Shown: positions 2 to 20,379 of the stretch, piece after piece
How positions within the stretch are numbered: position 1 is the first letter of the stretch
How the letters are laid out: each line of letters starts with the position of its first letter
From: Planctomycetota bacterium
Lineage (GTDB): Bacteria > Planctomycetota > UBA1135 > GCA-002686595
DNA length: 21,876 nt
Direction of reading: 5' to 3'
Assembly (NCBI GenBank): GCA_047618505.1
Contig: JBLHLB010000028.1
Coordinates: 1-21,876, forward strand
The notes under the pieces: generated by a model
What the model was told of the DNA's origin: nothing
Seen by the model: the letters and a program-made list of their open reading frames with translations, nothing else
Database searches by the model: none
Position numbers and translations under genes: made by a program

Positions 2-55
2 TTCGTCCTCGCAAGCATCGCCGCCGCCGTCTACTTCTTCCTGATCCGCGAATAG
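2..55 (+). CDS. 3' end of an upstream gene running in from the window edge; hydrophobic C-terminal tail FVLASIAAAVYFFLIRE then TAG
   Basis: Frame 2 is open from the window start to TAG at 53-55. The translated tail looks like the end of a TM helix. Only 18 codons are visible. Confidence 0.3.
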   Translation, partial: FVLASIAAAVYFFLIRE

Positions 56-110
56 GGCGATCCATATGGACCTTCGTTGTAGGGAAACCAAGAGCAGGGG
101 AGCGCGGTCG

Positions 111-2384
111 ATGGGGTGGTTGCTCCTGGGTGCGATCCCGCTTCTCGGCTCCCTCGGTCACAGTTCCTTCGCCCCTCTTTTTCCTGGGGGCAGCGCTTCA
201 GAGGCCGGCGATCCGGTGGGCCAGGACTCGAACCGTCCCTTCCTGCACTACGATCACGTTGCGGCACCCTGGTTGAATCCCGATTTAGGTGAAGTCGAGC
301 GCGATTGCCTTGGGTGTCACGACCTGGACGCGCCCTGGAGTGACGTCAACGCCAAGGCGCTCTGCGCGAAGTGCCACTACCAGTACACGGCGACGGTTCC
401 TGAGTTTCCGGTGGACCAGAAGGTGGCAACGGACGGGACGCTTGGCTTCGGCTACGCGTCGATGGAAGTCTTCCTACACGGTGAGCATGGCACTCTGACC
501 TGTCGCGAGTGCCATGCACCCGACTCCTTCCGTCAGGGGCAGATTCTGAAGTCGATTCCGCAGTCCGCGACGATGGTGATTCGGCGCGGGATCAACGAGT
601 GTCAGCGATGCCATGAAACAGGCAGTTTGGAGACCCTTGGTCGGCCGCTAGAGGCACGCTCTGGTGACTCCGCCGGTCTTGAGGCGGACAGCTTCTTCTC
701 CGGTCTCAACGGAGATCCGAGCATGGGGCCCGATGCATTGGGCGCGTTCATCCACGGCGAGCACATGCTGGATCCGGCGGCGTCCTTTAGCCTCTCAAGC
801 CTTCACGCCGATGCCGAAGGGTGCGCGACTTGCCACGCCGCGCTCCTGCTCGAGACTACACAGCGCTCGGCGCCGGAAGAGCTGCTTCCGCAGGCGGGTT
901 GCGATGAATGCCACGTTTCCGTCGACGACAGCGCCCTCTCTTTCAGGGGTCCATCGGAGGCGCTACCGTCCCTTTCCAGTGGGGCATTTTTCCACGGCGA
1001 CCATCTCCGTACGGGTGTTGCCGGCCGCGTTTCTGCAGGCGTTGCCAGTGCGGATTCCCATGCCCAGCTCGAGATCCAGAGCTGCAGCGTCTGCCACCAA
1101 GTCGGCGGCTCCGATGGTGGCCGCGAGTTCGCCTTCGACCTAGCCCAACCAGAATATAGCTATTTGGGATGCGCGCAGTGCCACGACACCCCCGCGTGGC
1201 AAACACAAGGTCACGGCGAATGGACCAGTTGCACGGATTGTCACAGCTTCAGCGGTCCGACCAGTGACCTAAGGACAGATCGGCCGCTTGCTGCCGAGCC
1301 GGTAGCGCGTCGTAGGCCTACGAGTTTTCGAATCGAAAGCCAAACGCACCGGATGATCACCGGGCTCACAAAGGCAGACCTGGATCAAGCCTGCGTCGAA
1401 TGCCATCGCGCCCCGGTCGAGTCCCTTCCCTCGCGCATTCGCGACACAGCCTTCCGTCACTCTACACATCTACCCGCGGAGTTCGACAGCGACGATTGCT
1501 TGCGTTGCCACAGTGAACCCGTGGCCCAGGCAAGTCGTTCCTGGGAGCTGGGTGGGGCCCTAGCGGGCAATTCGATCCAGCCTGCGGAGGACGGGGAAGC
1601 ACACCCGCGCTTCGGTCTGACCTACGATCCCGATAGCTGCAACGGGTGCCATGAGGGAGCAGTGATCACTCCTGTCCTCGCCCCGATCGAGACCAGTTTG
1701 ACTGTGGAATTCTCCCACGCCGGTCACCTCACACCTGAATTACTGGATCCTCTTGGGGAGCACGCAATTTCCTGTGGCGATTGCCACGGAGTACAGGGTG
1801 GGGCTGACCTTGGAGAGCCCGTGGATCCGTCGCGCTTCTTCGCCAAGCCCGCTGAGTGCTCCAGCTGTCACGACCATGGGGAGAACGCAGCGATTACAGC
1901 AAACTTCGGTGGTCTTGCTTCGAGCAGCGCGACGAGCTGTGCCCAATGTCACGGCGGGGGCCAAGGTGGGGGCATCCCATTCATCCGCAGCGGCGAACTC
2001 TTGGCGAGCTCAAGCCTCGCCCAGCGCGTCGCAACCGTCAGCGGAATCCAGGCACACCCGAACGACAGAAACTGCGAGACATGTCACGTCACCATGGGGA
2101 ATGAGTTGCGGAGCCCTGACGTTGCCCTAGGTCTTGTCTCCGTCGCCGGTATCAAGAAGAGGATGCACGGCGGAGACTATCCCCAGGTGGATCCCAATGC
2201 ACCAGCCGTGTCGGCGGACGGATCCAAGGAGCAGCAGACTTGCCTTTCCTGTCACTGGACTCTGATCGCCAGCTCGATGACGCAGGACCCCTTCAGCCCC
2301 GAGATTCGCGACGTCTTCGGCAGTCTGCTAGGGACTACACCGCCACGCACCTTCCCCGGCAGACCCGCGTCTGAGCTTCGATGA
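111..2384 (+). CDS. Secreted multiheme cytochrome c with 17 CxxCH motifs, built from c3/c7-type domains
   Basis: The ORF track gives 66..2384. I prefer the ATG at 111 (MGWLLLGAIPLLGSLGHSSFA, a Sec-type signal peptide) because GGGGAG lies 8 nt upstream. I count 17 CxxCH motifs: CLGCH, CAKCH, CRECH, CQRCH, CATCH, CDECH, CSVCH, CAQCH, CTDCH, CVECH, CLRCH, CNGCH, CGDCH, CSSCH, CAQCH, CETCH, CLSCH. F-x-H-x-x-H motifs recur before heme sites (FLHGEH, FIHGEH, FFHGDH, FRHSTH, FSHAGH), as in cytochrome c3/c7 distal His ligands. Confidence 0.9.
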   Translation: MGWLLLGAIPLLGSLGHSSFAPLFPGGSASEAGDPVGQDSNRPFLHYDHVAAPWLNPDLGEVERDCLGCHDLDAPWSDVNAKALCAKCHYQYTATVPEFPVDQKVATDGTLGFGYASMEVFLHGEHGTLTCRECHAPDSFRQGQILKSIPQSATMVIRRGINECQRCHETGSLETLGRPLEARSGDSAGLEADSFFSGLNGDPSMGPDALGAFIHGEHMLDPAASFSLSSLHADAEGCATCHAALLLETTQRSAPEELLPQAGCDECHVSVDDSALSFRGPSEALPSLSSGAFFHGDHLRTGVAGRVSAGVASADSHAQLEIQSCSVCHQVGGSDGGREFAFDLAQPEYSYLGCAQCHDTPAWQTQGHGEWTSCTDCHSFSGPTSDLRTDRPLAAEPVARRRPTSFRIESQTHRMITGLTKADLDQACVECHRAPVESLPSRIRDTAFRHSTHLPAEFDSDDCLRCHSEPVAQASRSWELGGALAGNSIQPAEDGEAHPRFGLTYDPDSCNGCHEGAVITPVLAPIETSLTVEFSHAGHLTPELLDPLGEHAISCGDCHGVQGGADLGEPVDPSRFFAKPAECSSCHDHGENAAITANFGGLASSSATSCAQCHGGGQGGGIPFIRSGELLASSSLAQRVATVSGIQAHPNDRNCETCHVTMGNELRSPDVALGLVSVAGIKKRMHGGDYPQVDPNAPAVSADGSKEQQTCLSCHWTLIASSMTQDPFSPEIRDVFGSLLGTTPPRTFPGRPASELR

Positions 2385-3454
2385 ACGCAAGCCTCTTCAG
2401 AACGCGTTATCTCCTCTATGGCGCCATCATCAGTGCGGGCTTTATCGCCTGGTGGCAGGTCGGCGGCTTTGCCCTCGGGCGCGGTGGCGATGGCAATGTG
2501 AGCTACCTGCTTTGGTCCGGTTGGGTTGCGGTTGCGCTCTATCTGGCGGTGATTGCCTACGTCGGTCGCAAGTACATCCAACGCGTCAAGCGTCCCCCCA
2601 CGCGCGATGAAGTCGCCGCTTACGAGGCGTCCATCGACCGGGCCGAAACGCGTATCAAGAAGGTCGAGCGCGAAATCCTAAGTGGTGTGCTCAAGGCCGA
2701 AGGCGACATACGCAAGCGTGTGCAGGCGATCTGCAGGGATGAGGGCGTCACAAAGTTCAAGCACCCCGTGCTGATCGCCGGTGAAGGGGGCGCTCCAGCC
2801 TTTCGTGTGGAGTTAGTCTCTAACGAGCCCGCCGGCCGCGTCATTGTTTGGCTGCACGCGCACCTCTACTTCGGCCTCGCAGCCGCGGTCCTTGTGATTC
2901 TCCATGGCGGACTTGTCTGGAGCACGCCCATGGGCTTGCTCCTGAACGGCCTGAGTTTTCTGGTGACGATCACCGGTGTCATCGGCGTGTACTACTGGGC
3001 CGTAGGGCCATCCATGCTGACTCGAGCAGAGGGGAATTTCACGATCGAGGAGGCCTTCGCGCTCGAGCGACACTTTGCCCTCAAATTGGAAGACGCCTTC
3101 ACTCCGCCGGTGAAGAACCCGGAGAAGGAAATCGATAAGGCCTACGAGAAGGACAAGGTCGTCTTTGACGAAGTCGTCAAGCTTCAGGGCTTCGCCAAGT
3201 CCTGTGCCAAGGAGCCCAGCCCCGCTAAGGTCGAGCAGCAGTTGACCGCCGTCCTCTCCGAGGACGCCAAGGTCGCGGGCCTCCAACGGGACGTCGCCGT
3301 CCTCATCGCCCAACGCGGAAAGGCCGGCGATGAGCTGCGCCGCCTATCGCGTATCCGCTTCCTGATCAATTCCTGGCGCGTCGTGCACGTGCCCGCTTCC
3401 ATCGCCCTGGTGGGAGTTCTCGTCGTTCACATCTTCACCGTGTGGATGTACTGA
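2381..3454 (+). CDS. Integral membrane protein with about 5 TM helices; putative di-heme b-type transmembrane electron carrier
   Basis: The ATG overlaps the upstream stop (ATGA at 2381-2384). Hydrophobic segments sit at about aa 10-32, 43-63, 153-180, 184-209 and 333-357. Both intervening loops (aa 64-150 and 210-330) are K/R-rich, so they should be cytoplasmic. H161/H175 in TM3 and H336/H350 in TM5 are each exactly 14 residues apart in helices of the same orientation, which is the classic bis-His spacing for two stacked b hemes. Confidence 0.75.
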   Translation: MNASLFRTRYLLYGAIISAGFIAWWQVGGFALGRGGDGNVSYLLWSGWVAVALYLAVIAYVGRKYIQRVKRPPTRDEVAAYEASIDRAETRIKKVEREILSGVLKAEGDIRKRVQAICRDEGVTKFKHPVLIAGEGGAPAFRVELVSNEPAGRVIVWLHAHLYFGLAAAVLVILHGGLVWSTPMGLLLNGLSFLVTITGVIGVYYWAVGPSMLTRAEGNFTIEEAFALERHFALKLEDAFTPPVKNPEKEIDKAYEKDKVVFDEVVKLQGFAKSCAKEPSPAKVEQQLTAVLSEDAKVAGLQRDVAVLIAQRGKAGDELRRLSRIRFLINSWRVVHVPASIALVGVLVVHIFTVWMY

Positions 3455-3457
3455 GCC

Positions 3458-4963
3458 ATGGCAGCCCAAACAGATAACAGCGACGTCCTGGCCCAGTTGG
3501 GGCGACTCGCTCCCTTTGCCGACCTCGGCGAAGAGACCAAGCAGAACAAGAAGCAGCGTGCCGCGCTCCTGGAGTTCCACCGCTTCGAAGACTACTCCCG
3601 CGGCGAAGTGATCATCGAGCAGGGGGAATTCACCGGCGAATTCTGTGTCGTCATCTCCGGCTCCGTGGCCGTCTTCCGCTCCGAGGATGGGTCCATCAAT
3701 CGCCTGGGCAATCTGGGCTCGGGGGAGTGGTTCGGCGAAATGAGCGCCCTCTCCTTCCAGGCCGCAGTGGCGCAGGTGCGCTCGGAGTCCCGCGCCTTGG
3801 TCCTGGTGATCGACCAAGCGCTCTTCAAAACGCTCTATGAAGCGGCCAAGGGCAAGAGCGCCTTCAAGGCGGCGATCGACGAAAAGTACCGCCAGCGCGC
3901 CCTCTCCCTGCACCTGCGCGTGGCGCCGCTCCTGGCAGAGTTGAGCGTCGCCGACCTAGAGTCCATTGGCCAACGAGCGGAGCTCGTGCGTTTCGAAGAA
4001 GGCGACGTGGTCGCCGAGCAGGGAGTGAAGGCCGATGCCGTCTACCTGATTCGAAGCGGCGCGGTGAAAGAAGTACGCCGGGATGAGAAAGGCTCTGAGC
4101 GCGTGCATTCCTACTATCGCGGCAACTCCTCGGTCGGGGAAAACTGCCTCGCACGGGAGGACGTTTCCTGGCGCGGGACCCTGACGGCCATGACGCCCAC
4201 GGATGTGGTCAAGATTCCCGTGGGCGTGTTCCTGGAGATCTTCGGCGCAACGGGGGCAGCGGCCGCGAACGAGAGTCAGACCCTGAGCAGGCTGCGCCTG
4301 GCGGCGGATCGAATCGCCGCGGAGGATCGCGGTGTCGAAACAGGGGGCTCCAGCGACGAACTTGACGTGATGGTCGGCGCCGAAAGCGCCAAGGGCGGCA
4401 AGGCGCTGGTGATCGACCTGGACAAGTGCACTCGCTGCAATGCATGCGTGGAATCCTGTGTCGCTGCCCACGAAGACGGTATTCCGCGGCTCTCCAAGAA
4501 GGGCAATCGCATCTCGTCGAACAAGGTGTTGTCGTCGGCCTGCTACAGCTGCGAGATCCCGGACTGCATGCAGTCCTGTGACTTCGGTGCAATCCGTCGC
4601 GACGTGAACGGATCGATCCGCTTCATCTACGATAACTGTACGGGCTGCACGCTCTGCGTTCCCGCCTGTCCCTATGACGTCATTCGCATGACGCCTCCGC
4701 CTAACCAGCCGGATTCGCGTCCCCCGGGCTTCCTGGAGAGCATTCCATTTCTGGGCAAGCTCCTGGCGCCGAAACGTCCCGAGGAAATCGACGCTGGCGA
4801 GAAGGTCTTGGCGGCACGCACCCAGGGAGCGGTGGCCGGCAAAGCCATCAAATGCGATCTGTGTGCGGGCTTGCCCTATGAGGCCTGTGTCTACAACTGT
4901 CCCTGCGGCGCCATCGATCGCTTCGATCCGGCTGCCCTCTTTGCTGGCGAGGAATCCAAGTAG
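3458..4963 (+). CDS. Cytoplasmic fusion protein: two tandem cNMP-binding (CAP-effector-like) domains plus a C-terminal four-cluster [4Fe-4S] ferredoxin domain (NrfC/PsrB/HybA-like)
   Basis: There is a 3-nt gap after the upstream stop and no signal peptide. cNMP-like domains cover aa ~18-130 (GEWFGEMSAL...) and aa ~150-262 (VGENCLAREDVSWRGTLTAM). Four Cys clusters follow: C324-x2-C-x2-C-x3-C, C362-x2-C-x4-C-x3-C, C394-x2-C-x2-C-x3-CP, C466-x2-C-x7-C-x3-CP. Confidence 0.9.
   Translation: MAAQTDNSDVLAQLGRLAPFADLGEETKQNKKQRAALLEFHRFEDYSRGEVIIEQGEFTGEFCVVISGSVAVFRSEDGSINRLGNLGSGEWFGEMSALSFQAAVAQVRSESRALVLVIDQALFKTLYEAAKGKSAFKAAIDEKYRQRALSLHLRVAPLLAELSVADLESIGQRAELVRFEEGDVVAEQGVKADAVYLIRSGAVKEVRRDEKGSERVHSYYRGNSSVGENCLAREDVSWRGTLTAMTPTDVVKIPVGVFLEIFGATGAAAANESQTLSRLRLAADRIAAEDRGVETGGSSDELDVMVGAESAKGGKALVIDLDKCTRCNACVESCVAAHEDGIPRLSKKGNRISSNKVLSSACYSCEIPDCMQSCDFGAIRRDVNGSIRFIYDNCTGCTLCVPACPYDVIRMTPPPNQPDSRPPGFLESIPFLGKLLAPKRPEEIDAGEKVLAARTQGAVAGKAIKCDLCAGLPYEACVYNCPCGAIDRFDPAALFAGEESK
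3509..3847 (+). other. cNMP-binding-like domain 1 of the ferredoxin fusion protein
   Basis: Beta-roll signature G-x-GE-x-FGE-x-AL. The canonical phosphate-binding Arg appears to be replaced (SFQAAVAQV). Confidence 0.6.
3905..4243 (+). other. cNMP-binding-like domain 2 of the ferredoxin fusion protein
   Basis: FEEGDVVAEQG...YLIRSGAV...VGENCLA...WRGTLTA pattern, with an Arg present in the putative phosphate-binding cassette. Confidence 0.6.
4400..4927 (+). other. 4x[4Fe-4S] ferredoxin domain (16 Cys in four cluster motifs)
   Basis: CTRCNACVESC / CYSCEIPDCMQSC / CTGCTLCVPACP / CDLCAGLPYEACVYNCP. Confidence 0.85.
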
Positions 4964-4969
4964 GTCGCC

Positions 4970-7141
4970 ATGGCAAAGGAAGCAGATCCTGAAGGCGGCG
5001 CGGGCGTGATGCGATTTAGCATTCCTGGCAAACGCAAGAGCGATGCAGCCCGCTTGGCGAGCGTCGCCGATCGCATCACGGTAGGCTCCGCTCGTTCCTC
5101 TGACCTGTCTATCGACGATCCTGTAGCGTCGGATGAACATTGCGTCCTTACCTTCAAGGACGGGCGCTTCTTTGCGGAGGACGCGAATAGCTCGACTGGT
5201 ACCTACTTGAATGGGCTGTCCGTGCAGGCACCCGTTGAGATCGCCGAGGGCGACTCGCTGGTCTTGGGCGTCAGTCGCATCACATTCAAGATCGAGACGA
5301 GCGACGCCGGGCCGACCCTGGTGATGTCCCTAGCCGAGAAGTCCTTCTATTTCGTTGAGAAGGGCAAGCCGGCCAAGAACGGCAAGAAGCGCACCCTCGC
5401 GGATCTTTATCAGTGGGTGCGATCCGAGGTCGTCTTCGGCCGCTCCCGGATGTTGACCTGGGGGAACTTCGCGGCCGGTGGACTAACTCTTGTGCTCTTC
5501 GGTGTGGTCTTCGCAGCCAGCGTGCGCGAGCCCCTGTCGGATCCCGGACACCTGCATGCCTCGCACCAGATGTTGTTTGATGAGGGGCTGAGTGCCGAGC
5601 AGCGGGATCTGCTGAACGCTTCCTACCCGGACGCTCTGACTCTGGCGACGGCCCAAGGCTGCGATGTTTGCCACTCGTCCTTTGGGGGGACGCCGGCGGA
5701 AAAGTGCGCCCAATGCCACGGCGACATCGTCGGTGAACAGCAACATCCAGGGCTCAGCGCCGGACTCAGCGATCCCCAGGCCTGGTGGGCGGACACCGGC
5801 TGTGTGCGTTGCCACACGGATCACACTCGCGATGCCGCCTGGGACTTCATCCCATCGGTGCAGAAGACCCAGGCTTCCTGTGGTGAGTGCCACGCCGAGG
5901 ATCGCCACCCGGCGGGGGATATGCCAATCGCTCCAGTCGAGGGACAGCGGCAGACATCTATCGCCTACAACGACTTCTCCCACGCGGATCACCTGAAGCG
6001 CGTGGACGGCGGAGCAGCGGTTGCCTGCTCGCTTTGCCATGTCGAAGTGACAGAGGGCGCTGGGGTCTCGGTGGCCGCGAGCCTAGGGCGTAACTTTGCC
6101 CCCGCCGATTACGACGTTTGCACACGCTGCCACATCGCTGGGCAAGTCGACGCATCGATCCCAGAGGAGTTCCTGCCCGTAGCCATGACCTTGGCCTGGC
6201 ACGGCACGGATGACGGCGAGGAGAACTGCACCCAGTGTCACGCAGAGCTGTACCAGGATACCTTGGCGACCGTGGAGTTGCAGCGCGCGGTCAATCAGCT
6301 CTTCAGCTTGCCGACACGGGTCACCCACGGCGAGTTCATCAAGGGTCACGTAGAATTCGAAGTGGAGGCGGCGGGCAGTGTCGAGGCCTGCATCGATTGC
6401 CACCGCGATTCAAACGTGACGCCCCAGGCAATCCCCGCCCAGCCCTTCCTGCATGGGTTGCACCTGTCGGAGCTGCAGCCGGCGACGCCCGCCGATGCGC
6501 GTCGTTTGAGCGCGGCTGCTGGTGAGTGCCTGTCCTGTCACCAGGGCATCGACCAGGTCAGCACCCTGAGCGGCGATGCCTTTGCTGGGGCCGAGGGCCA
6601 ATGCGCCGATTGCCACACCAACGGCGTACCCGCGGCCTTCCGGGAGCCGGCTTCCCTGGACACCGCCGTGGAGTTTCCCCACGACGTTCACACCAGGGCC
6701 TTCTCCACCTCCAAGACACTGGAGATGGGCTGCTTCGCTTGCCATGAGTTCGCCGAATCAGATCTCTTTGCGGCGGAGATTAGCACCAATAGCGACGCCC
6801 AGAGTTGCATGGACTGCCACGCTAAGCACAACAACATGGCGGGAGCCGTGGAGGGCTGTGCCGTCTGCCACGAGGTCGGTGTCGATTCGCATGAGGGCAG
6901 TTATTGGGGCAAGACGATTTCGAAGAAGTGGCCCGCCGCAAACACCTTCGACCACTTCAGCACAGGCCACGCCGCGGGGGCAGCCATGGACCTCACCGGC
7001 ACCGCCGGCTGCACCGAGTGCCATGCTGTCGATGGTCTTTGGGACGCAACCTCGATCCTTGACGTCACCATTCCCACCGAGGCCCAGGCCGAGTGCCGTG
7101 AGTGCCACGTGAACGGGAAGCAACGGTTTCATTGGCGATGA
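4970..7141 (+). CDS. N-terminal cytoplasmic FHA domain, one TM helix, then a periplasmic multiheme cytochrome c with 15 CxxCH motifs
   Basis: There is a 6-nt gap after the upstream stop. FHA signature at aa ~13-105: ITVGSARSSDLSIDDPVASDEHCVL...DANSSTGTYLNG...GDSLVLG. TM helix at aa ~163-185 (WGNFAAGGLTLVLFGVVFAASV). I count 15 CxxCH: CDVCH, CAQCH, CVRCH, CGECH, CSLCH, CTRCH, CTQCH, CIDCH, CLSCH, CADCH, CFACH, CMDCH, CAVCH, CTECH, CRECH. F-x-H-x-x-H motifs also present: FSHADH, FLHGLH, FPHDVH. Confidence 0.9.
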   Translation: MAKEADPEGGAGVMRFSIPGKRKSDAARLASVADRITVGSARSSDLSIDDPVASDEHCVLTFKDGRFFAEDANSSTGTYLNGLSVQAPVEIAEGDSLVLGVSRITFKIETSDAGPTLVMSLAEKSFYFVEKGKPAKNGKKRTLADLYQWVRSEVVFGRSRMLTWGNFAAGGLTLVLFGVVFAASVREPLSDPGHLHASHQMLFDEGLSAEQRDLLNASYPDALTLATAQGCDVCHSSFGGTPAEKCAQCHGDIVGEQQHPGLSAGLSDPQAWWADTGCVRCHTDHTRDAAWDFIPSVQKTQASCGECHAEDRHPAGDMPIAPVEGQRQTSIAYNDFSHADHLKRVDGGAAVACSLCHVEVTEGAGVSVAASLGRNFAPADYDVCTRCHIAGQVDASIPEEFLPVAMTLAWHGTDDGEENCTQCHAELYQDTLATVELQRAVNQLFSLPTRVTHGEFIKGHVEFEVEAAGSVEACIDCHRDSNVTPQAIPAQPFLHGLHLSELQPATPADARRLSAAAGECLSCHQGIDQVSTLSGDAFAGAEGQCADCHTNGVPAAFREPASLDTAVEFPHDVHTRAFSTSKTLEMGCFACHEFAESDLFAAEISTNSDAQSCMDCHAKHNNMAGAVEGCAVCHEVGVDSHEGSYWGKTISKKWPAANTFDHFSTGHAAGAAMDLTGTAGCTECHAVDGLWDATSILDVTIPTEAQAECRECHVNGKQRFHWR
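5006..5290 (+). other. FHA (phosphothreonine-binding) domain of the cytochrome fusion
   Basis: G-x-x-R ... S-x-x-H ... N-S-S-T-G-T-x-L-N-G ... G-D-x-L pattern typical of FHA domains. Confidence 0.7.
5456..5524 (+). other. Single transmembrane anchor separating the cytoplasmic FHA domain from the periplasmic heme domain
   Basis: A 23-residue hydrophobic stretch preceded by a K/R-rich segment (KGKPAKNGKKR...GRSR). The first CxxCH is at aa 231, after the helix. Confidence 0.7.
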
Positions 7142-8793
7142 CCTCCAAGGGACCCCCCATTCGACTGGAATATACAGTCGCAGGTGTCGGTTCATCCTTC
7201 GCCTTCGATCCTGGAGTGATTCAGGTGGGGCGCGAGCCGAAGTGTGACCTGGTAATCGATGACGAGTGGATGTCCCGTTCCCATGCGACGCTCTCGTTTG
7301 AAGAGGGGCGCTGGATCGTGCGCGACACCAAGAGCGCGAACGGCACCAGGGTCAACTCCCGGCGCATCAGGGAGGAAGCCCTAACCGATGGGGATCACAT
7401 CCGCTTCGGTCGTATCGATGTGCTCTGCAGTATCCCCGAAGAGGCGGGCAACAGGATCGACTTCGTGGACGTGGATATGGAGGGACTGATGACCCAATCC
7501 ATCGCGGTGGGGGACTTCGATCAGCTCCTGCGCTCCGTCTTGCAACCGGAGGAAAAGCCCGCCGATGGAACGGCGAAGATTACCCGTTCTCCCGCCGCCG
7601 CTGGTCAGGACCAGGACGAGCCTTCGGCGCTCGGGGACGTTGCTTGGATTCTGCAGGTCGTCAAGGGCACTACTGAGGCGTTGGTTTCCGTCGACGAACT
7701 CAATCAGGTCTTGGACCGAATTCTGGTGCTGGTTTCAGAGCACCTCAAGATGGACTACGGCGTCATTTACCTTTGCGAAGAGGGGCTTGAGGATCTCGAG
7801 AAGATGGCCGAGCACTGCGGTCGTCTGCACGGCGAAACCCAGCCCGTGCAGATCAGCCTGAGTGTTGCGCGCACAGCGGTCGAGAGGCGCGAAGCCGTGT
7901 TGATCACGAACGCTGGGGACGACGAGCGTTTCGCGGGGATCCAGAGCATTGTTTCCAGTGGAACGCAGTCCGCCGTTTGCGCTCCCTTGATCCACCAGGG
8001 CAAGGTACTGGGGCTGATTTACGTTCTTCAGACTGCGCTCGGCGAGACCTACAACACCACGCACCTGGGGGTCCTCTCGATCCTGGCGGGACTCTCGGCG
8101 GCAGCCGTGGACCGCGCGCGTTTACGCGAGGGTATGGAGCTTGAGAAGCAAAAGCGCGTGCGGCTCTCTCGCTACCACGCGCCGGCAGTTGTTGAACGAA
8201 TCATCCGTGATGGCTCAGGAGAAATGACCTCCTACGAGCGCGAGATCACGGTGCTCTTTGGCGACATCGTTGGCTTCACCGCCTTGGCCGAACGCCTTTC
8301 CGCAGGCGAGGTTACGCGGATCCTGAACGAGATCTTCCAGGGGATCACTGACGCTGTCTTTGATCAGGGTGGCACCCTGGACAAGTTTATCGGAGATGCC
8401 GCGATGGCATTTTTTGGGGCACCTAACGAACAGACGGACCATGCGGAGCGTGCCGTGCGTGCTGGGCTTGCCATGCAGGCCGGTCTGCGTGACTACAACG
8501 CGGGCAGGGCCCCGGCGGACTGTTTGGGCATGCGTATTGGCATTAACAGCGGCGTCGCCATTGTCGGCGACGTGGGGGCCCTTCAACGCAAGGACTTCAC
8601 CTGTATCGGAGACGCGGTCAACGTCGCCAGCCGCCTGGAGTCCACCGTGGCTGAGGAGGGCCAGGTCGTGATTGGCCCGCGAACCTTTGAGTTGCTGGCG
8701 GGATGCATGGAGACCAAAACACTGCCGCCCAAGCCTCTCAAGAACAAGCTGACTCCGATCCAGCCGTACCTTGTTGTTGATCCAGAAGCCTGA
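7138..8793 (+). CDS. FHA - GAF - class III adenylate cyclase (CHD domain)
   Basis: The ORF track gives 7102..8793. The ATG at 7138 overlaps the upstream stop as ATGA, so I prefer it. FHA: VGREPKCDLVIDDEWMSRSHATL...SANGTRVN...GDHIRFG. GAF at aa ~195-340. Cyclase domain: VLFGDIVGFTAL...KFIGDAAMAFFGAP...MRIGINSGVAIVGDVG...CIGDAVNVASRLES. Confidence 0.9.
   Translation: MTSKGPPIRLEYTVAGVGSSFAFDPGVIQVGREPKCDLVIDDEWMSRSHATLSFEEGRWIVRDTKSANGTRVNSRRIREEALTDGDHIRFGRIDVLCSIPEEAGNRIDFVDVDMEGLMTQSIAVGDFDQLLRSVLQPEEKPADGTAKITRSPAAAGQDQDEPSALGDVAWILQVVKGTTEALVSVDELNQVLDRILVLVSEHLKMDYGVIYLCEEGLEDLEKMAEHCGRLHGETQPVQISLSVARTAVERREAVLITNAGDDERFAGIQSIVSSGTQSAVCAPLIHQGKVLGLIYVLQTALGETYNTTHLGVLSILAGLSAAAVDRARLREGMELEKQKRVRLSRYHAPAVVERIIRDGSGEMTSYEREITVLFGDIVGFTALAERLSAGEVTRILNEIFQGITDAVFDQGGTLDKFIGDAAMAFFGAPNEQTDHAERAVRAGLAMQAGLRDYNAGRAPADCLGMRIGINSGVAIVGDVGALQRKDFTCIGDAVNVASRLESTVAEEGQVVIGPRTFELLAGCMETKTLPPKPLKNKLTPIQPYLVVDPEA
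7213..7425 (+). other. FHA domain of the cyclase
   Basis: Canonical GR...SRxH...NGT.VN...GD motifs. Confidence 0.8.
7684..8121 (+). other. GAF domain
   Basis: The region between the FHA and cyclase domains has a GAF-like pattern (LDRILVLVSEHLKMDYGVIYL...KVLGLIYV). Confidence 0.55.
8239..8736 (+). other. Class III nucleotidyl cyclase catalytic domain; the Lys/Thr specificity pair suggests a class IIIb adenylyl cyclase
   Basis: Metal-binding Asp in FGDIVGFT. Substrate-specifying Lys in DKFIGD. Thr at the position of the second specificity residue (DFTCIGDAVN). Transition-state Asn and Arg in VNVASR. Confidence 0.75.
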
Positions 8794-13672: not shown

Positions 13673-15802
13673 CTAGATGAACCAGGGCAGGAACACCAGG
13701 CCCACAACCGTCATCAGCTTGACGAGGATGTTGAGGGAGGGTCCCGAGGTGTCCTTGAAGGGGTCACCAACGGTGTCACCGACGACAGCGGCCTTGTGGG
13801 GCTCGGAGCCCTTGCCGCCGTGGGCGCCGCCTTCGATGTACTTCTTCGCGTTGTCCCAGGCACCGCCTGCGTTGGACATGAAGATGGCCATCATGACGCC
13901 CGTGACGAGGGCGCCGGCGAGCAGACCACCGAGGGCCTGGACGTTCCAGAAGCCCACGAGGATCGGGGCTAGGACGGCGATGACGCCGGGGACGATCATT
14001 TGCTTGAGGGCACCGTCGGTGGAGATCTCAACGCAGCGAGCGGCGTCCGGGGGCGTGGTGCCCTCCATGATGCCGGGGATCTCGCGGAACTGACGGCGAA
14101 CTTCTTCGACCATGGCGAAGGCGGCGTTGCCGACGGCGCGCATGGTCAAGGCGCTGAACAGGAAGGGCAGGATGCCGCCCAGCAGCATGCCAATGATGAC
14201 ATTGGTCGTGTTGATGTTCAGCATCAGGAAGCCGGTGCTTTGGTCAAGCATTCCGGTCAGCTTGGCGATTGCCCCCTCGTCCGTCATGCCTGCGACACGT
14301 TCGGTCACCAGGGAGCCGGCGCGGATGCAGAAGGCGCCGAAGAGCGCCAGGGCTGTCAGAGCGGCGGACCCGATGGCGAAACCCTTGCCGATGGCGGCCG
14401 TCGTGTTACCGACGGCGTCGAGTGCGTCCGTACGCTGACGAACCACTTCGGGCAGCTTGGCCATCTCGGCCAGTCCACCGGCGTTGTCAGCCACGGGGCC
14501 GTAGGCGTCAACACCGAGGGATATACCCAGGGTGGAGAGCATTCCGACGGCGGCTAGGGCGACGCCGTAGACGCCGGCCATGTAGTTGGAGAAGAAGATC
14601 GAACCGCAGATTAGAAGCACGGGGACGACCACCGATTCCATGCCCGTTGCCAGGCCGTGGATGATGTTGGTGGCAGCGCCGGTTTCGGACTGCTTGGCGA
14701 TGTTCTGGACCGGGTGCGTGTCGGTCGAGGTGTAGTACTCGGTGATCTTGCCGATGGCGACGCCGATCACGAGACCGGAGACGATAGATAGCAGAAGAGC
14801 CAAGCCCGTGCTCATGTCGTGATCGACACCGACGAGGGTTTCCGGCAGATTGAGCACGTCGGTCAGCGTGAGGAACGCGGTGGCCGCGACGACTACTGCG
14901 GAGGCGACAAGCAGTCCGCGGAAGAGTGCGGAGTGCAGGGCGTGCTCGTCATTGGCCTTCACAAAGAAGGTGCCGATGATCGAGGCGATAATCCCCATAG
15001 CCGAAACGGCGATCGGCAGAACCACGATGCCAGACATGCCGGGGTCCCCGGCGTAGGCGAAGGCGCCCAGTGTCATGGCGGCGATGATCGAGCCCACATA
15101 GGACTCGAACAGGTCCGCACCCATGCCGGCCACGTCACCGACGTTATCACCGACGTTGTCCGCGATGGTGCCGGGGTTACGGGGGTCGTCTTCGGGGATG
15201 CCCTGCTCGACCTTGCCGACGAGGTCGGCGCCGACGTCCGCGGCCTTGGTGAAGATGCCACCACCGACGCGACTGAAGAGGGCGATGGCTGAGGCGCCGA
15301 AGCTGAAGCCCAGGACGTACTCGAGGTTCTTAGAGTCGAGATCGGAGGCGTAGGCCAGCGTGAAGCCGACGACGCCTAGTAGCGCCAAGCCGACTACGCT
15401 CATGCCCATCACTACACCGGAGCTGAAGGCAACGCCCAGGGCGTCCGACAGACTCTTCGTTGCGGCCTGGGTGGTACGGACCGCAGCGCGGGTTGCGGTG
15501 TGCATGCCGAAGTAGCCGGCCAAGGCCGAAGCGAAGGCGCCTGCGACGAAGGCACCTGCAGTTTTCGGGCCGAGGCCGTCATCAGCGCTCGAGGCACCGA
15601 TGGCGATGGCGACGATGACCACGAAGATCGCAAGCCACTTGTACTCCGCTTTCAGGAAGGCGGCGGCGCCGTCCTGCACAAGCTTGGAGATGTCCTGCAT
15701 CTGTTGAGTGCCGGCATCCTGCTTCATGATGCCACCGAATTTCACGATGGCGTAAACAAGAGCGATGACGGCGGCACCGCCGGCGACGTAGAGGAATTCC
15801 AT
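13673..15802 (-). CDS. hppA: Membrane-bound proton-translocating pyrophosphatase (H+-PPase)
   Basis: Diagnostic motifs [35 protein letters not shown] and [22 protein letters not shown]. About 16 TM helices. 709 aa. Confidence 0.95.
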
Positions 15803-17740: not shown

Positions 17741-19408
17741 ATGTTGCACCCTTTTCTAGCCCAAAGCACTTGGGATACTTGGACTTACATCCCGGTGGCC
17801 CTGGCCCTCGTTCTCGTGGCCCTAGTGGTTGCCTTTTCAAGACGCTACAAGCGTTGCCCCTCCAACAGGATCCTGGTGATCTACGGTAAGACCTCTGCGG
17901 GTCGTACCTCGAAGACCCTGCACGGTGGCGGTGCCTTCGTGATACCCCTGATCCAGGACTACCAGTACCTGTCCCTGGATCCGATGCAAATCGAGATCCC
18001 CCTGGAGGGCGCGCTCTCCATTGAGAACATTCGCGTCAACGTTCCCTCTGTCTTCACGGTCGCCATCGGCACAGAGCCGGAGATCATGGAGAATGCCGCC
18101 ATTCGCCTCCTGGGGCTGACGGGTGCGGAGATCATGAAGCAGGCTGAGGACATCATCTTCGGTCAATTGCGCCAGGTGATCGCCTCCATGAAGATTGTGG
18201 AGATCAACCGCGACCGCGATACGTTCCTTTCCAGCGTTCAGATGTCCCTTGAGCCTGAGCTCAAGAAGATCGGTCTTGTGCTGATCAACGTGAACATCAA
18301 GGACATCAAGGATGAGTCCGGCTACATCGAGGCCATCGGTCGAAAGGCCGCTGCCGTCGCCATCAACCAGGCCATGATCGACGTGTCGATCCAGGAGAAG
18401 TCAGGCGCCATCGGAGTGGCCGAAGCGGACCGTGAGAAGTTCATTGTCGTTGCCGCTGCAGAAAAGGACCGCGATATTGGAACCCGGGAAGCCGAGCGTG
18501 AGCGTGCCGTCCGCCTCGCGGAGCTCGAAAAGGAGCGCATTATTGGCGAGCAGACTGCGGCCTATGAGCAGGAGGCCCAGGTGCGCGACCGTGAGCGCGA
18601 AATGCGCGTGCGAGTGGCGGACGCCAACGCAATGGCCATCGAGGGTGAAAACGAATCAAAGGGTCGCGTGGCCAAGGCCAACGCTCATCTGAAGGTCCAG
18701 GAGGCAGAGGCCTATCAGCTTGCAGAAACTCGTCGCAAGGAAGCCGAGGCCGGCGTGCTTGAGGCGTCCTACGTCGCCCAAACGAAGGCAGCGCAGGCGG
18801 AAGCTCTAAAGGTCGAAGCCGAGACGCGGGCCCAGCTCGAGTCCGTTTCACGAGCCCAGAAAGCCAAGGCTATCGTCGACGCCCAGGCGGACGCCGAAAG
18901 CCGCGTGATCCACGCCAAGGCCGAGGCCGAGGCGAACTACGCCGTGCTCGAAGCCGAAGCCCGCGGTCAGTACGAGATCCTTGCCAAGAAGGGTGAAGGT
19001 CTGCGCATGATCGTCGATAGCTGCGGCGGCGCCCAGGCGGCCTTCCAGATGCTCATGCTCGAGCACATGGATCACCTTTCCGAGACGGCGGCCAAGGCCA
19101 TCGCCAACGTCAAGTTCGACAAGGTCATCGTCTGGGACAACGGCCAGGGCGGCGAAGGCGGCAACGCGGCCACGGGCTTCCTCAAGGGGATGGCCGGTGC
19201 TCTGCCCCCGATGATGCAGATCATGAAGGACATCGGTGGCGTCGAGATGCCGGAGTTCTTTGGCAAGCTCGTCGGCGACGATGGCAAGACAGCTGCGGCC
19301 AGTGCCGTGGCCAGTGCGCCGGTAGCGGCGGATGTCGACGGGGATTCCGCCGACGACGGCTCAGCCGGCCCCGCAGAAGACTCCACCGCCAAGGGCTCCG
19401 AAGCCTGA
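17741..19408 (+). CDS. floT: Flotillin-family SPFH domain protein (FloT/YuaG-like)
   Basis: N-terminal TM helix, an SPFH/band 7 domain, and long EA/AEA-rich coiled-coil repeats (AEAEAEA...KAEAEANYAVLEAEARGQYE) typical of flotillins. 555 aa. Confidence 0.9.
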   Translation: MLHPFLAQSTWDTWTYIPVALALVLVALVVAFSRRYKRCPSNRILVIYGKTSAGRTSKTLHGGGAFVIPLIQDYQYLSLDPMQIEIPLEGALSIENIRVNVPSVFTVAIGTEPEIMENAAIRLLGLTGAEIMKQAEDIIFGQLRQVIASMKIVEINRDRDTFLSSVQMSLEPELKKIGLVLINVNIKDIKDESGYIEAIGRKAAAVAINQAMIDVSIQEKSGAIGVAEADREKFIVVAAAEKDRDIGTREAERERAVRLAELEKERIIGEQTAAYEQEAQVRDREREMRVRVADANAMAIEGENESKGRVAKANAHLKVQEAEAYQLAETRRKEAEAGVLEASYVAQTKAAQAEALKVEAETRAQLESVSRAQKAKAIVDAQADAESRVIHAKAEAEANYAVLEAEARGQYEILAKKGEGLRMIVDSCGGAQAAFQMLMLEHMDHLSETAAKAIANVKFDKVIVWDNGQGGEGGNAATGFLKGMAGALPPMMQIMKDIGGVEMPEFFGKLVGDDGKTAAASAVASAPVAADVDGDSADDGSAGPAEDSTAKGSEA

Positions 19409-20379
19409 TGCGCAACCGCCCCCGACGGAACCGCAAGAGCGCGGCCCTGCGCGAATTCGCCGCAGAGACCGCGCTCTCCGCCGATCGCTTCGTTTGGCCT
19501 GTCTTCATCCACGAAGGCGACCAGGACGAGGCGATCGACTCCATGCCGGGACAGTCGCGACTGTCACCGGAAGGTCTTCTGCGGGAAGTCGAAGGGGCCC
19601 TGGGGGAGGGGGTGCGGTCGATCGTGCTCTTTCCCCGTGTACCGGACGAGTTGAAGCATTCAGACGGGCGTGCCGTCCGAGATGCGGAGGGGTTGGTGCC
19701 GCGCTCGATCCGCGAGCTGAAGTCGCGCTTCCCCGAGCTGACGATCATCACCGATGTCGCCCTGGATCCCTACTCGCCGGATGGACACGACGGTATCGTC
19801 GCGCCGGATGGTCGGATCTTGAATGACGAGACCGTGGAGGTCCTCTGCGATCAAGCTGTGGTTCAGGCGGAAGCCGGGGCCGATGTGATCGCGCCCAGCG
19901 ACATGATGGACGGGCGTATCGGTGCGCTTCGCGATGCCTTGGACGCACGTGGTTTCACGGAGGTTTCACTGCTTTCCTATAGCGTGAAGTACGCCTCGGC
20001 CTTCTACGGTCCCTTCCGCGATGCACTGGATTCCGCGCCGAAGTCGGGCACGAAACAGAGCTATCAAATGGACCCGCGCAACGCGCGCGAAGCCCTGCGT
20101 GAGATCGCCCTGGACGAGAGCGAAGGTGCCGACATGTTGATGGTCAAGCCCGCCGGTGCGTACCTGGATGTGATCCGTGCCGTGCGCGATGTGACCACGC
20201 TGCCGGTGGCGGCCTATCAGGTTTCGGGCGAGTACGCGATGCTTGAGGCGGCGGCGCAAAACGGATGGCTGGATCGCCGCGCCGCTGTCCTAGAGAGCCT
20301 CGTGGCGATTCGTCGCGCCGGCGCGGACATGATCCTGACCTACTACGCGCGCAGGGCCGCGCGCTGGCTGGCAGAGTAA
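19408..20379 (+). CDS. hemB: Porphobilinogen synthase (delta-aminolevulinate dehydratase), Mg2+-type
   Basis: N-terminus RRNRKSAALREF. Active-site region SYSVKYASAFYGPFRD with the Schiff-base Lys in MVKPAGAYLDVI. An Asp-rich metal site DVALDPYSPDGHDG replaces the Cys-rich Zn site. The start overlaps the flotillin stop (TGATG). Confidence 0.95.
   Translation: MRNRPRRNRKSAALREFAAETALSADRFVWPVFIHEGDQDEAIDSMPGQSRLSPEGLLREVEGALGEGVRSIVLFPRVPDELKHSDGRAVRDAEGLVPRSIRELKSRFPELTIITDVALDPYSPDGHDGIVAPDGRILNDETVEVLCDQAVVQAEAGADVIAPSDMMDGRIGALRDALDARGFTEVSLLSYSVKYASAFYGPFRDALDSAPKSGTKQSYQMDPRNAREALREIALDESEGADMLMVKPAGAYLDVIRAVRDVTTLPVAAYQVSGEYAMLEAAAQNGWLDRRAAVLESLVAIRRAGADMILTYYARRAARWLAE

Follow-up and report, generated by a model that had tools for sequence, protein, structure and literature searches.

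The window, that is, the whole stretch of 21,876 nucleotides analysed here, opens with a run of genes on the forward (+) strand that combines multihaem cytochromes with signalling domains. At its edge lie the final 17 codons of a gene that begins upstream (2..55; FVLASIAAAVYFFLIRE*), and their translation, in frame 2, closes with a hydrophobic tail. They probably encode the C-terminal membrane segment by which a double-FHA adaptor is tail-anchored; we infer the adaptor identity, since the gene body lies outside the window, cut by the contig end, and a tail-anchored FHA protein occupies the matching position in the closest related locus, L006. There follow A (66..2384), a periplasmic cytochrome c of 17 haems whose N-terminus carries a signal-like hydrophobic segment, recognised by 17 CxxCH motifs and Pfam matches; B (2381..3454), a membrane protein with five transmembrane (TM) helices and a putative di-haem b transmembrane cytochrome, judged by invariant His residues and sub-threshold matches to DUF4405; C (3458..4963), cytoplasmic and soluble, with a pair of cNMP-binding-like domains and motifs for four [4Fe-4S] clusters, identified by Pfam matches and invariant Cys residues; D (4970..7141), a 723-aa protein and the subject of this study; and E (7138..8793), with the Pfam domains of an FHA, a GAF and a class III nucleotidyl cyclase module, whose start ATG overlaps the stop codon of D (ATGA). 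No Ccm/Ccs haem-maturation genes were found within the 21.9-kb window.

The open reading frame, Pfam matches, motif count and AlphaFold model of D describe an FHA domain joined through one TM helix to a 15-haem cytochrome c. The FHA core (aa 36-100; 5075..5269) matches PF00498 with E=4.3e-15 and about 56.3 bits (cut-off 20.7 bits), and D also scores above threshold for PF16697, the YscD cytoplasmic domain (37.6 bits against a cut-off of 33.2 bits). A juxtamembrane helix and then a signal-anchor TM helix follow (5399..5527); the single hydrophobic stretch of the protein covers aa 162-186, within a modelled helix of aa 160-190. The haem domain (5564..7138) holds exactly 15 CxxCH motifs between aa 231 and 709, which take up 30 of the 31 Cys residues. 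The original prediction, with an FHA domain at aa ~13-105, a single TM helix at aa ~163-185 and fifteen CxxCH motifs, was thus correct in its coordinates and counts, and the domain search bears out its FHA assignment. It had further placed the FHA domain in the cytoplasm and the haems in the periplasm. D has no N-terminal signal peptide, and K/R residues are in excess before the TM helix, as compared with after it, in 62 of 66 orthologues, with the bias reversed in none; an N-in signal anchor with cytoplasmic FHA domain and periplasmic haems follows from this, just as predicted. Since M14 corresponds to the first residue of most orthologues, the true start of D may lie at 5009.

Conservation within the haem domain is strict. 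All 15 CxxCH motifs are invariant across the orthologues, and so are 14 extra His residues, with one more (H199) near-invariant, a pattern consistent with electron-transfer haems that are all bis-His ligated. Additional Pfam matches are to Cytochrome_C7, c3_2 and an MtrC/MtrF domain. By its motifs, its extra His residues and its signal anchor, D is a multihaem cytochrome c. In the full-length AlphaFold model the haem domain has a pLDDT below 50 and is unusable for structure comparison. The juxtamembrane region carries conserved residues of its own, namely D145, the invariant E153 (68/68), F156-G157-R158 and N166 (62/67).

Related loci were gathered by a search with an alignment of C, whose relatives occur in 238 species-level genomes; 80 of these 238 matches were kept, and all of them are MAGs except Ferrigenium KS. 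Among the loci kept, D orthologues occur in 69 non-redundant ones, almost all of them from Planctomycetota MAGs, and B, C and D are adjacent in every one of the 69. The FHA-cytochrome fusion, which falls into about 120 clusters when grouped at 50% identity, also extends to Gallionella/Ferrigenium, with a 9-haem D, and to Nitrospira, with a 10-haem D, both in the gene order C-B-D. Only the B-C-D trio is common to all three phyla, and a conserved partner of the D FHA domain should therefore lie within the trio. The original prediction knew of no precedent for such a fusion, which was nearly right: our literature search on FHA domains with multihaem or c-type cytochromes returned two thin ones and nothing further. 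The first is one row of a table in a 2023 paper on the Gallionellaceae pangenome, 'Forkhead-associated protein, 10 haems', cluster 403 (PMC10734462), and the second is the nonahaem cytochrome c (NHC) cluster of Candidatus Ferrigenium straubiae, to which that row also refers and which is reported at the level of transcription with its function unassigned (bioRxiv 10.64898/2026.01.22.701106). The D cluster is a conserved gene set that is almost undescribed.

What the FHA domain does is a question on which its fold and its residues speak differently. The AlphaFold model forms a beta-sandwich over aa 30-125 with pLDDT 79-92, and Foldseek superposes it on the FHA domain of GarA (probability 1.00), with 68-75 residues fitting to within 0.8-0.9 A. 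Aligned to GarA, however, D of the window has G39-S40 in place of Gly-Arg and T76-G77 in place of Asn-Gly, and keeps only S54-x-x-H57. Across the D family the canonical Arg column holds Arg in 0/73 sequences, the canonical Ser column holds Ala in 62/69, and the canonical Asn column holds Asn in 0/73. The residues that support the fold have been kept: G39, D50 and G77 are invariant, and H57, T78 and G82 nearly so. Taken together, this alignment describes an FHA domain that has kept its fold and lost the residues of a functional phosphothreonine (pThr) reader, and the domain is probably a phospho-independent cytoplasmic docking module, more scaffold than phospho-reader.

The original prediction had instead proposed a genuine pThr reader, with a phosphorylated form of the cyclase or of the ferredoxin subunit C as candidate partner. 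In a fuller version of this view an adaptor could be the partner as well, and Ser/Thr-kinase signalling would govern where the haem wire is placed or how it is put together. The residue counts, which by the original prediction's own standard (conserved Gly-Arg, Ser-x-x-His and Asn-Gly) largely go against it, leave this weakly supported, and we regard it as unlikely. The fold is real and close to those of the pThr-binding GarA, EmbR and Rv1747, the window retains S54 and H57 with R42 nearby, and an Arg one residue past the canonical position (G-x-R) recurs in 51 of 69 orthologues, so that D may have a non-standard phosphate pocket. Yet S54, the sole binding residue that the window keeps, is not conserved in the D family, and single changes at the canonical Arg, Ser or Asn positions of the Rad53 FHA1 domain reportedly abolish phosphopeptide binding. 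A search for phospho-acceptors gave few leads: the cytoplasmic part of D lacks conserved Ser/Thr residues except in the core of the fold, S99 is the only conserved candidate in C, and T214 of B (GPxWLTRAE, just after TM4), conserved in 69/76, could speculatively be named as a candidate. A further view, that the loss of the canonical binding residues marks a functionless relic, or that the fusion is an artefact of gene calling or assembly, is highly improbable. It would have to account for retention across the 69 loci and the many divergent clusters, including those of Gallionellaceae and Nitrospira, for the invariant structural residues, for the high confidence of the domain model and for a continuous reading frame, and this conservation effectively refutes it.

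Signalling domains are found all around D. Another FHA protein is present in 58 of the 69 D loci, the other 11 being cut off upstream; tail-anchored FHA adaptors occur in 27 loci and, by Pfam and locus census, FHA-fused NAD(P)H-type flavoprotein/2Fe-2S reductases in 23. The 178 accessory FHA domains at these loci are mostly canonical (GR|SxxH|SxNGT), and this abundance at Planctomycetota loci, which implies pThr signalling around the complex, could be counted in favour of a reader in D as well. The regex HRDxKxxN + DFG picked out a Ser/Thr kinase within 10 kb at 6 loci, which is also in keeping with that reading, but such kinases are not conserved neighbours and, at this frequency, not part of the conserved set. 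E itself has confident FHA (E=2.5e-19), GAF and Guanylate_cyc (E=4.8e-26) domains, and its Lys/Asp substrate pair suggests a cyclase of the adenylate type. Its FHA domain is fully canonical (GR / SRSH / SANGT), so E more probably reads phosphorylated residues than carries them. Cluster-linked proteins of the E type occur in L061 and L071, and probably also in L006. A homologue of A with 17 or 18 haems adjoins B-C-D in most Planctomycetota loci; A of the window matches Cytochrome_C7 and MtrC/MtrF domain II/IV in Pfam and, weakly, HmcA in NCBIfam.

Within the trio, C has Pfam matches to cNMP_binding (2 stretches, E=1.6e-32) and to Fer4 families, and weak NCBIfam matches to NrfC/DmsB/HybA-type ferredoxins and to DsrO. 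All 16 cluster Cys residues are invariant in 82-83 of 83 sequences, and no TM segment was found in C. The phosphate-binding cassettes are less well kept: in the window CNB1 is degenerate and has no Arg (AAVAQ), while CNB2 keeps it (WRGT), and across the family the cassette is canonical (FGE...PR[SA]AT) only in some clades and in Gallionellaceae, and degenerate in most Planctomycetota. We considered gating of C by a cyclic nucleotide made by the cyclase and rejected it as a general mechanism because of these degenerate cassettes and because cyclases are linked in just 4 loci; as a lineage-specific add-on it is possible.

The membrane subunit B has no above-threshold match in Pfam or NCBIfam, and the case for haem comes from its conservation. 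Two pairs of His, H161/H175 in TM3 and H336/H350 in TM5, each 14 residues apart, are kept in 74-75 of 75 sequences covering the three phyla, and both large loops lie on the K/R-rich side. Four such His residues with this spacing in two helices make B probably a di-haem b cytochrome. Homologues of B match DUF4405 (PF14358) below threshold in 7 of 9 cases, at best with E=0.0026, and B resembles the DUF4405 / MsrQ / PepSY-like b cytochromes, members of which have been shown experimentally to bind haem b, in having four central, most-conserved His residues in TM helices (PMC11334425). It differs from the DUF4405 type in its scores below the Pfam cut-off and in its five TM helices with two large cytoplasmic loops, and its locus differs in having no flavinylation (ApbE) context.

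These residues bear directly on the hypothesis put forward for the 9-haem homologue in the Ferrigenium preprint, where the TM protein is taken as non-redox (bioRxiv 10.64898/2026.01.22.701106). According to this hypothesis D alone would be a quinone-pool oxidoreductase of the NapC/NrfH/CymA kind, with B as a scaffold and the FHA domain as a regulatory appendage. NrfH and CymA do share the layout of one TM helix ahead of a multihaem domain, there is a weak NCBIfam similarity to NrfH, and the near-invariant H199, only about 14 residues past the TM helix, might place one haem at the membrane surface. Neither the family HMM score nor the distance from TM helix to haem, however, places D in the NapC/NirT/NrfH/CymA family: the NrfH match reaches 28.8 bits against a cut-off of 134.2 bits, and the first CxxCH of the orthologues lies at a median of 41 residues past the TM helix. 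Moreover, the four invariant His residues of B offer a ready transmembrane haem path, unremarked in the preprint, and the conserved cytoplasmic FeS subunit C would be left without a role. We therefore consider a quinone-pool role of this kind quite improbable.

The reading that we favour instead, to which we commit about half of our belief, builds on the observed domain content, topology, synteny and residue conservation of the B-C-D set. It holds that D is the anchored haem-wire subunit of a three-protein transmembrane electron conduit, with its FHA domain as a phospho-independent docking module. Electrons would pass from the four [4Fe-4S] clusters of C through two b haems of B, stacked across the membrane on its four invariant His residues, to the 15 bis-His c haems of D in the periplasm and on to the 17-haem A. 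The FHA domain of D and its strongly conserved juxtamembrane helix would keep C attached to the membrane, as well as additional FHA-bearing partners in Planctomycetota. Any phospho-control would then run via the canonical FHA domains of the adaptors, the flavoprotein reductases and E, which would read pThr on the core complex. Both the order and the direction of electron flow are our inference, and the membrane potential and the flavoprotein partners speak for a flow outward from NAD(P)H. More tentatively, and with considerable doubt on our side, B-C-D could form the heart of a regulated conduit of a new class, present in at least three phyla. Canonical FHA domains on interchangeable cytoplasmic modules, namely the NAD(P)H flavoprotein reductases, the tail-anchored adaptors and an adenylate cyclase, would read Ser/Thr phosphorylation of the core complex and so select the electron donor or signal generator for a periplasmic wire of 30-plus haems, the degenerate D FHA domain being the fixed socket. 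If so, FHA/pThr signalling would here for the first time be seen to assemble a respiratory or extracellular electron-transfer chain directly.

Inner-membrane electron export in non-model bacteria is little known beyond Shewanella, Geobacter and sulfate reducers, and B-C-D represents a compact, widely distributed candidate conduit that may bypass the quinone pool. Signalling domains are unusually many in it, with FHA on the cytochrome, the adaptors, the NAD(P)H-type reductases and the cyclase, and cNMP-binding domains on the FeS subunit. Should the model hold, Ser/Thr phosphorylation and cyclic-nucleotide signalling would be tied directly to electron-transport wiring, and a conserved gene set of Fe(II)-oxidisers and Nitrospira would gain a testable function. 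On the narrower claim the value lies in a correction: the FHA domain of the cytochrome probably serves as a scaffold rather than reading phosphorylation.

Among described systems the NHC cluster is the nearest. It shares with the window a cytosolic N-terminal FHA domain, one TM helix and a periplasmic multihaem domain, next to 5-TM and [4Fe-4S] proteins. In a comparison with locus L081, B aligns with E=4e-15 and all four His residues, C is 29% identical with two cNMP-binding domains, and D is collinear (E=1e-5); judged by synteny and this pairwise homology, the window set is a cluster of the NHC type. The differences are nonetheless considerable: the NHC cytochrome has 9 haems as opposed to 15 and is ~19% identical to D, its FHA domain retains the Gly-Arg that D of the window does not, the gene order is C-B-D instead of B-C-D, and within 10 kb the 17-haem partner, accessory FHA proteins and the cyclase are all absent. 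A second group, the Tmc, Hmc and DsrMKJOP complexes of sulfate reducers, combines a periplasmic multihaem cytochrome c with a membrane di-haem b and a cytoplasmic FeS subunit, and B-C-D follows the same overall logic. Unlike their counterparts, B does not match the NarI/HdrE/DsrM family, neither B nor C has a Pfam match to Nitrate_red_gam or CCG, C is an NrfC/DmsB-like four-cluster ferredoxin with cNMP domains in place of an HdrD-like CCG protein, and the window set has no NrfD-like subunit. We know of no FHA or CNB modules in these complexes.

For the FHA domain itself, parallels come from further afield. The solved FHA domain nearest to that of D belongs to GarA, and the FHA-GAF-cyclase layout of E resembles Bdellovibrio DgcB, an FHA-fused nucleotide cyclase (6hbz, 6hc1). 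GarA/OdhI and DgcB, which represent FHA-regulated metabolic enzymes and cyclases, keep the full pThr pocket, whereas D does not, and D differs from both in being membrane-anchored to a cytochrome. Another analogy is offered by YscD/EscD/PrgH, the inner-membrane ring proteins of type III secretion, in which a cytoplasmic FHA fold without pThr residues is likewise followed by one TM helix and a periplasmic part (PF16697). Their FHA domains are phospho-independent. D departs from them in that its periplasmic part is a 15-haem cytochrome and its context is not that of a secretion system.

The protein under study, here called D, was predicted to join an FHA domain through one transmembrane helix to fifteen CxxCH motifs, with the FHA domain in the cytoplasm and the haems in the periplasm, and this layout holds. 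D has 723 aa (ORF 4970..7141, forward strand). By Pfam, aa 36-100 match the FHA family (E=4.3e-15), and there are further matches to several multihaem cytochrome families. The CxxCH motifs, counted by script, number exactly 15, span aa 231-709 and contain 30 of the 31 Cys; the only hydrophobic segment is aa 162-186. The AlphaFold model, based on 17 homologues, has a confident beta-sandwich at aa 30-125 (pLDDT 79-92); it shows aa 160-190 as a helix, and its haem domain is not reliably modelled. The N-terminal domain superposes on the FHA domains of GarA, EmbR, KIF13B and Rv1747 at ~1 A rmsd (Foldseek). As no signal peptide was found in D, and as Lys and Arg are more numerous before the helix than after it in 62/66 orthologues (reversed in none), D is a cytoplasmic FHA domain, a signal-anchor helix and a periplasmic 15-haem domain.

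An identical protein in NCBI is annotated from a Planctomycetota MAG. A word-indexed search returned 16 full-length homologues (30-35% identity), all with both FHA and cytochrome domains, and a profile search among 1.84 billion cluster representatives gave 231 proteins at E<1e-30, roughly 120 of them D-family members, full-length or fragments. All 15 CxxCH motifs and 14 additional His are invariant in the alignment, and H199 is nearly so (59/67); these extra His would give each haem a distal ligand, which fits an electron wire rather than a catalytic haem.

The part of the original prediction that did not survive is the mechanism, namely that the FHA domain reads phosphothreonine. In a formal alignment to GarA, Gly-Arg and Asn-Gly are absent from D: S40 takes the Arg position and T76 the Asn position, with S54/H57 kept as Ser/His. 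Among all 261 FHA domains from the related loci, none of the 73 D-type domains has the canonical Arg or the canonical Asn, with Thr, Ser, Leu or Val in place of the Asn. A separate 69-sequence alignment of the D family has Ala for the canonical Ser in 62/69 and an Arg one residue past the canonical column in 51/69. The fold-defining residues (G39, D50, H57, D71, G77, T78, G82) and a juxtamembrane motif (D145, E153 in 68/68, F156-G157-R158, N166) are nevertheless invariant or nearly so. We conclude from these patterns of conservation that the domain is probably functional without being a standard phosphothreonine reader. It resembles the FHA-fold domains of YscD-type proteins, which are phospho-independent, and PF16697 also scores above threshold in D. 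On its binding-face loops, position 44 is Cys in 41/69 family members and position 58 in 52/69 (S44 and C58 in the window); these could form a redox-sensitive Cys pair, which would be unusual for an FHA domain.

D lies in a tightly packed run of five genes on one strand. Ahead of it are a 17-haem cytochrome with a signal sequence (A, 66..2384), a protein with five transmembrane helices and no family match (B, 2381..3454) and a protein with two cNMP-binding domains and four Cys clusters (C, 3458..4963); after it comes an FHA-GAF-class III cyclase (E, 7138..8793), whose ATG overlaps the stop codon of D. The cluster is incomplete on its 5' side: the first 55 bases are the last 17 codons, encoding a hydrophobic C-terminus, of a gene severed at the contig end, and the closest related locus (L006) has a tail-anchored FHA protein at the matching position. 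Directly after E, and convergent with it, is a glutamate-synthase-like FMN-domain protein (PF01645; 8844..10382, reverse strand). Farther along lie a membrane H+-pyrophosphatase (13673..15802), a long SPFH/Band-7 protein (17741..19408) and porphobilinogen synthase (ALAD/HemB; 19408..20379), an enzyme of haem biosynthesis.

We scanned one genome per GTDB species with an alignment of C, keeping 80 loci from 238 relatives, and took a scripted census with HMMs made from the window's proteins. D is present in 69 non-redundant loci, nearly all from Planctomycetota MAGs, with B and C adjacent in all 69 and 15 haems wherever D is complete. Three homologue contexts repeat the A-B-C-D set with a double-FHA protein ahead of it. 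The order is C-B-D in Gallionella/Ferrigenium, where D has 9 haems, and in Nitrospira, where it has 10 and a Pfam-confirmed FHA domain. One planctomycete-type cluster (JBERSB010000212.1; C 41% identical) is labelled Luminiphilus sp. (Gammaproteobacteria), and is either a mis-binned contig or a horizontal transfer. Since the three phyla share only B, C and D, and C is soluble, we infer that the most economical role of the FHA domain and juxtamembrane helix would be to dock C at the membrane; in Planctomycetota they would dock further FHA proteins too.

Such a complex could plausibly carry electrons across the membrane. B (also L081:11305-12231 in the Gallionella/Ferrigenium comparison locus) has a W-x3-H-x13-H signature in both TM3 and TM5, an internal repeat; in all three phyla its four His are invariant. 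C, which has no membrane segment, carries four ferredoxin-type motifs, and their 16 Cys are all invariant. Judged from sequence, electrons would pass from FeS clusters in the cytoplasm (C) through two b haems in the membrane (B) to 15 + 17 c haems in the periplasm. C has canonical phosphate-binding cassettes in Gallionellaceae and one planctomycete clade (L061/L066/L071, two with a linked cyclase) and degenerate ones in most other Planctomycetota; in the window, the Arg is absent from CNB1 and kept in CNB2. The sequence of E, as we read it, shows both the metal-binding Asp residues and the Lys/Asp pair typical of adenylate cyclases. In this window cAMP made locally may act on C, but such signalling is not general to the system.

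At least one additional FHA protein is encoded in 58/69 loci, and the other 11 end <1.6 kb upstream of B. The additional proteins are of four types: tail-anchored double-FHA adaptors (27 loci), Pyr_redox-FHA-FHA proteins with a 2Fe-2S-like C-terminus (15 loci, Pfam), FHA-FNR-like (FAD_binding_6/NAD_binding_1)-2Fe-2S proteins (8 loci, Pfam) and FHA-GAF-cyclases (the window, L061, L071 and probably L006). Most of the 178 accessory FHA domains are fully canonical, including that of E (GR / SRSH / SANGT). A speculative phospho-acceptor for them is T214 of B, in GPxW(L/M)T(R)AE (aa 208-220) on the cytoplasmic side just past TM4, conserved in 69/76 including Gallionellaceae. Reductase genes with a fused canonical FHA domain adjoin B-C-D at L024:5907-7727, L032:16013-18484 (reverse strand) and 21 other loci; we know of no description of such FHA-fused NAD(P)H-type flavoprotein reductases. 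Being encoded beside the conduit, they point to FHA domains recruiting electron-input modules to it. In many Planctomycetota the cluster is flanked by very large cytochromes (1000-1400 aa) with 6-10 haems and LVIVD beta-propeller repeats, for example at L002:283-4236 and L032:18548-21535. These may be its terminal or outer partner; the window has none.

The fusion was also expected to be rare, and full-text searches found an FHA-multihaem cytochrome in only two places. They did not return the 15-haem form seen in planctomycetes, B's signature of four His, the degenerate phosphothreonine pocket of D, or the FHA-bearing reductases, adaptors and cyclase beside the trio. Of the two places, one is a table line in a 2023 Gallionellaceae pangenome (PMC10734462), 'Forkhead-associated protein, 10 haems, 27 genomes'. 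The other is a preprint from 2026 (bioRxiv 10.64898/2026.01.22.701106) on Ferrigenium straubiae, which describes a 9-haem homologue with 5-TM and [4Fe-4S] neighbours and states that FHA-multihaem fusions were previously unreported. It takes the TM protein to be non-redox and does not settle the function. The window's set is homologous to that locus, as we checked, and D is best filed with it under a barely described kind of system, a putative regulated transmembrane multihaem conduit.
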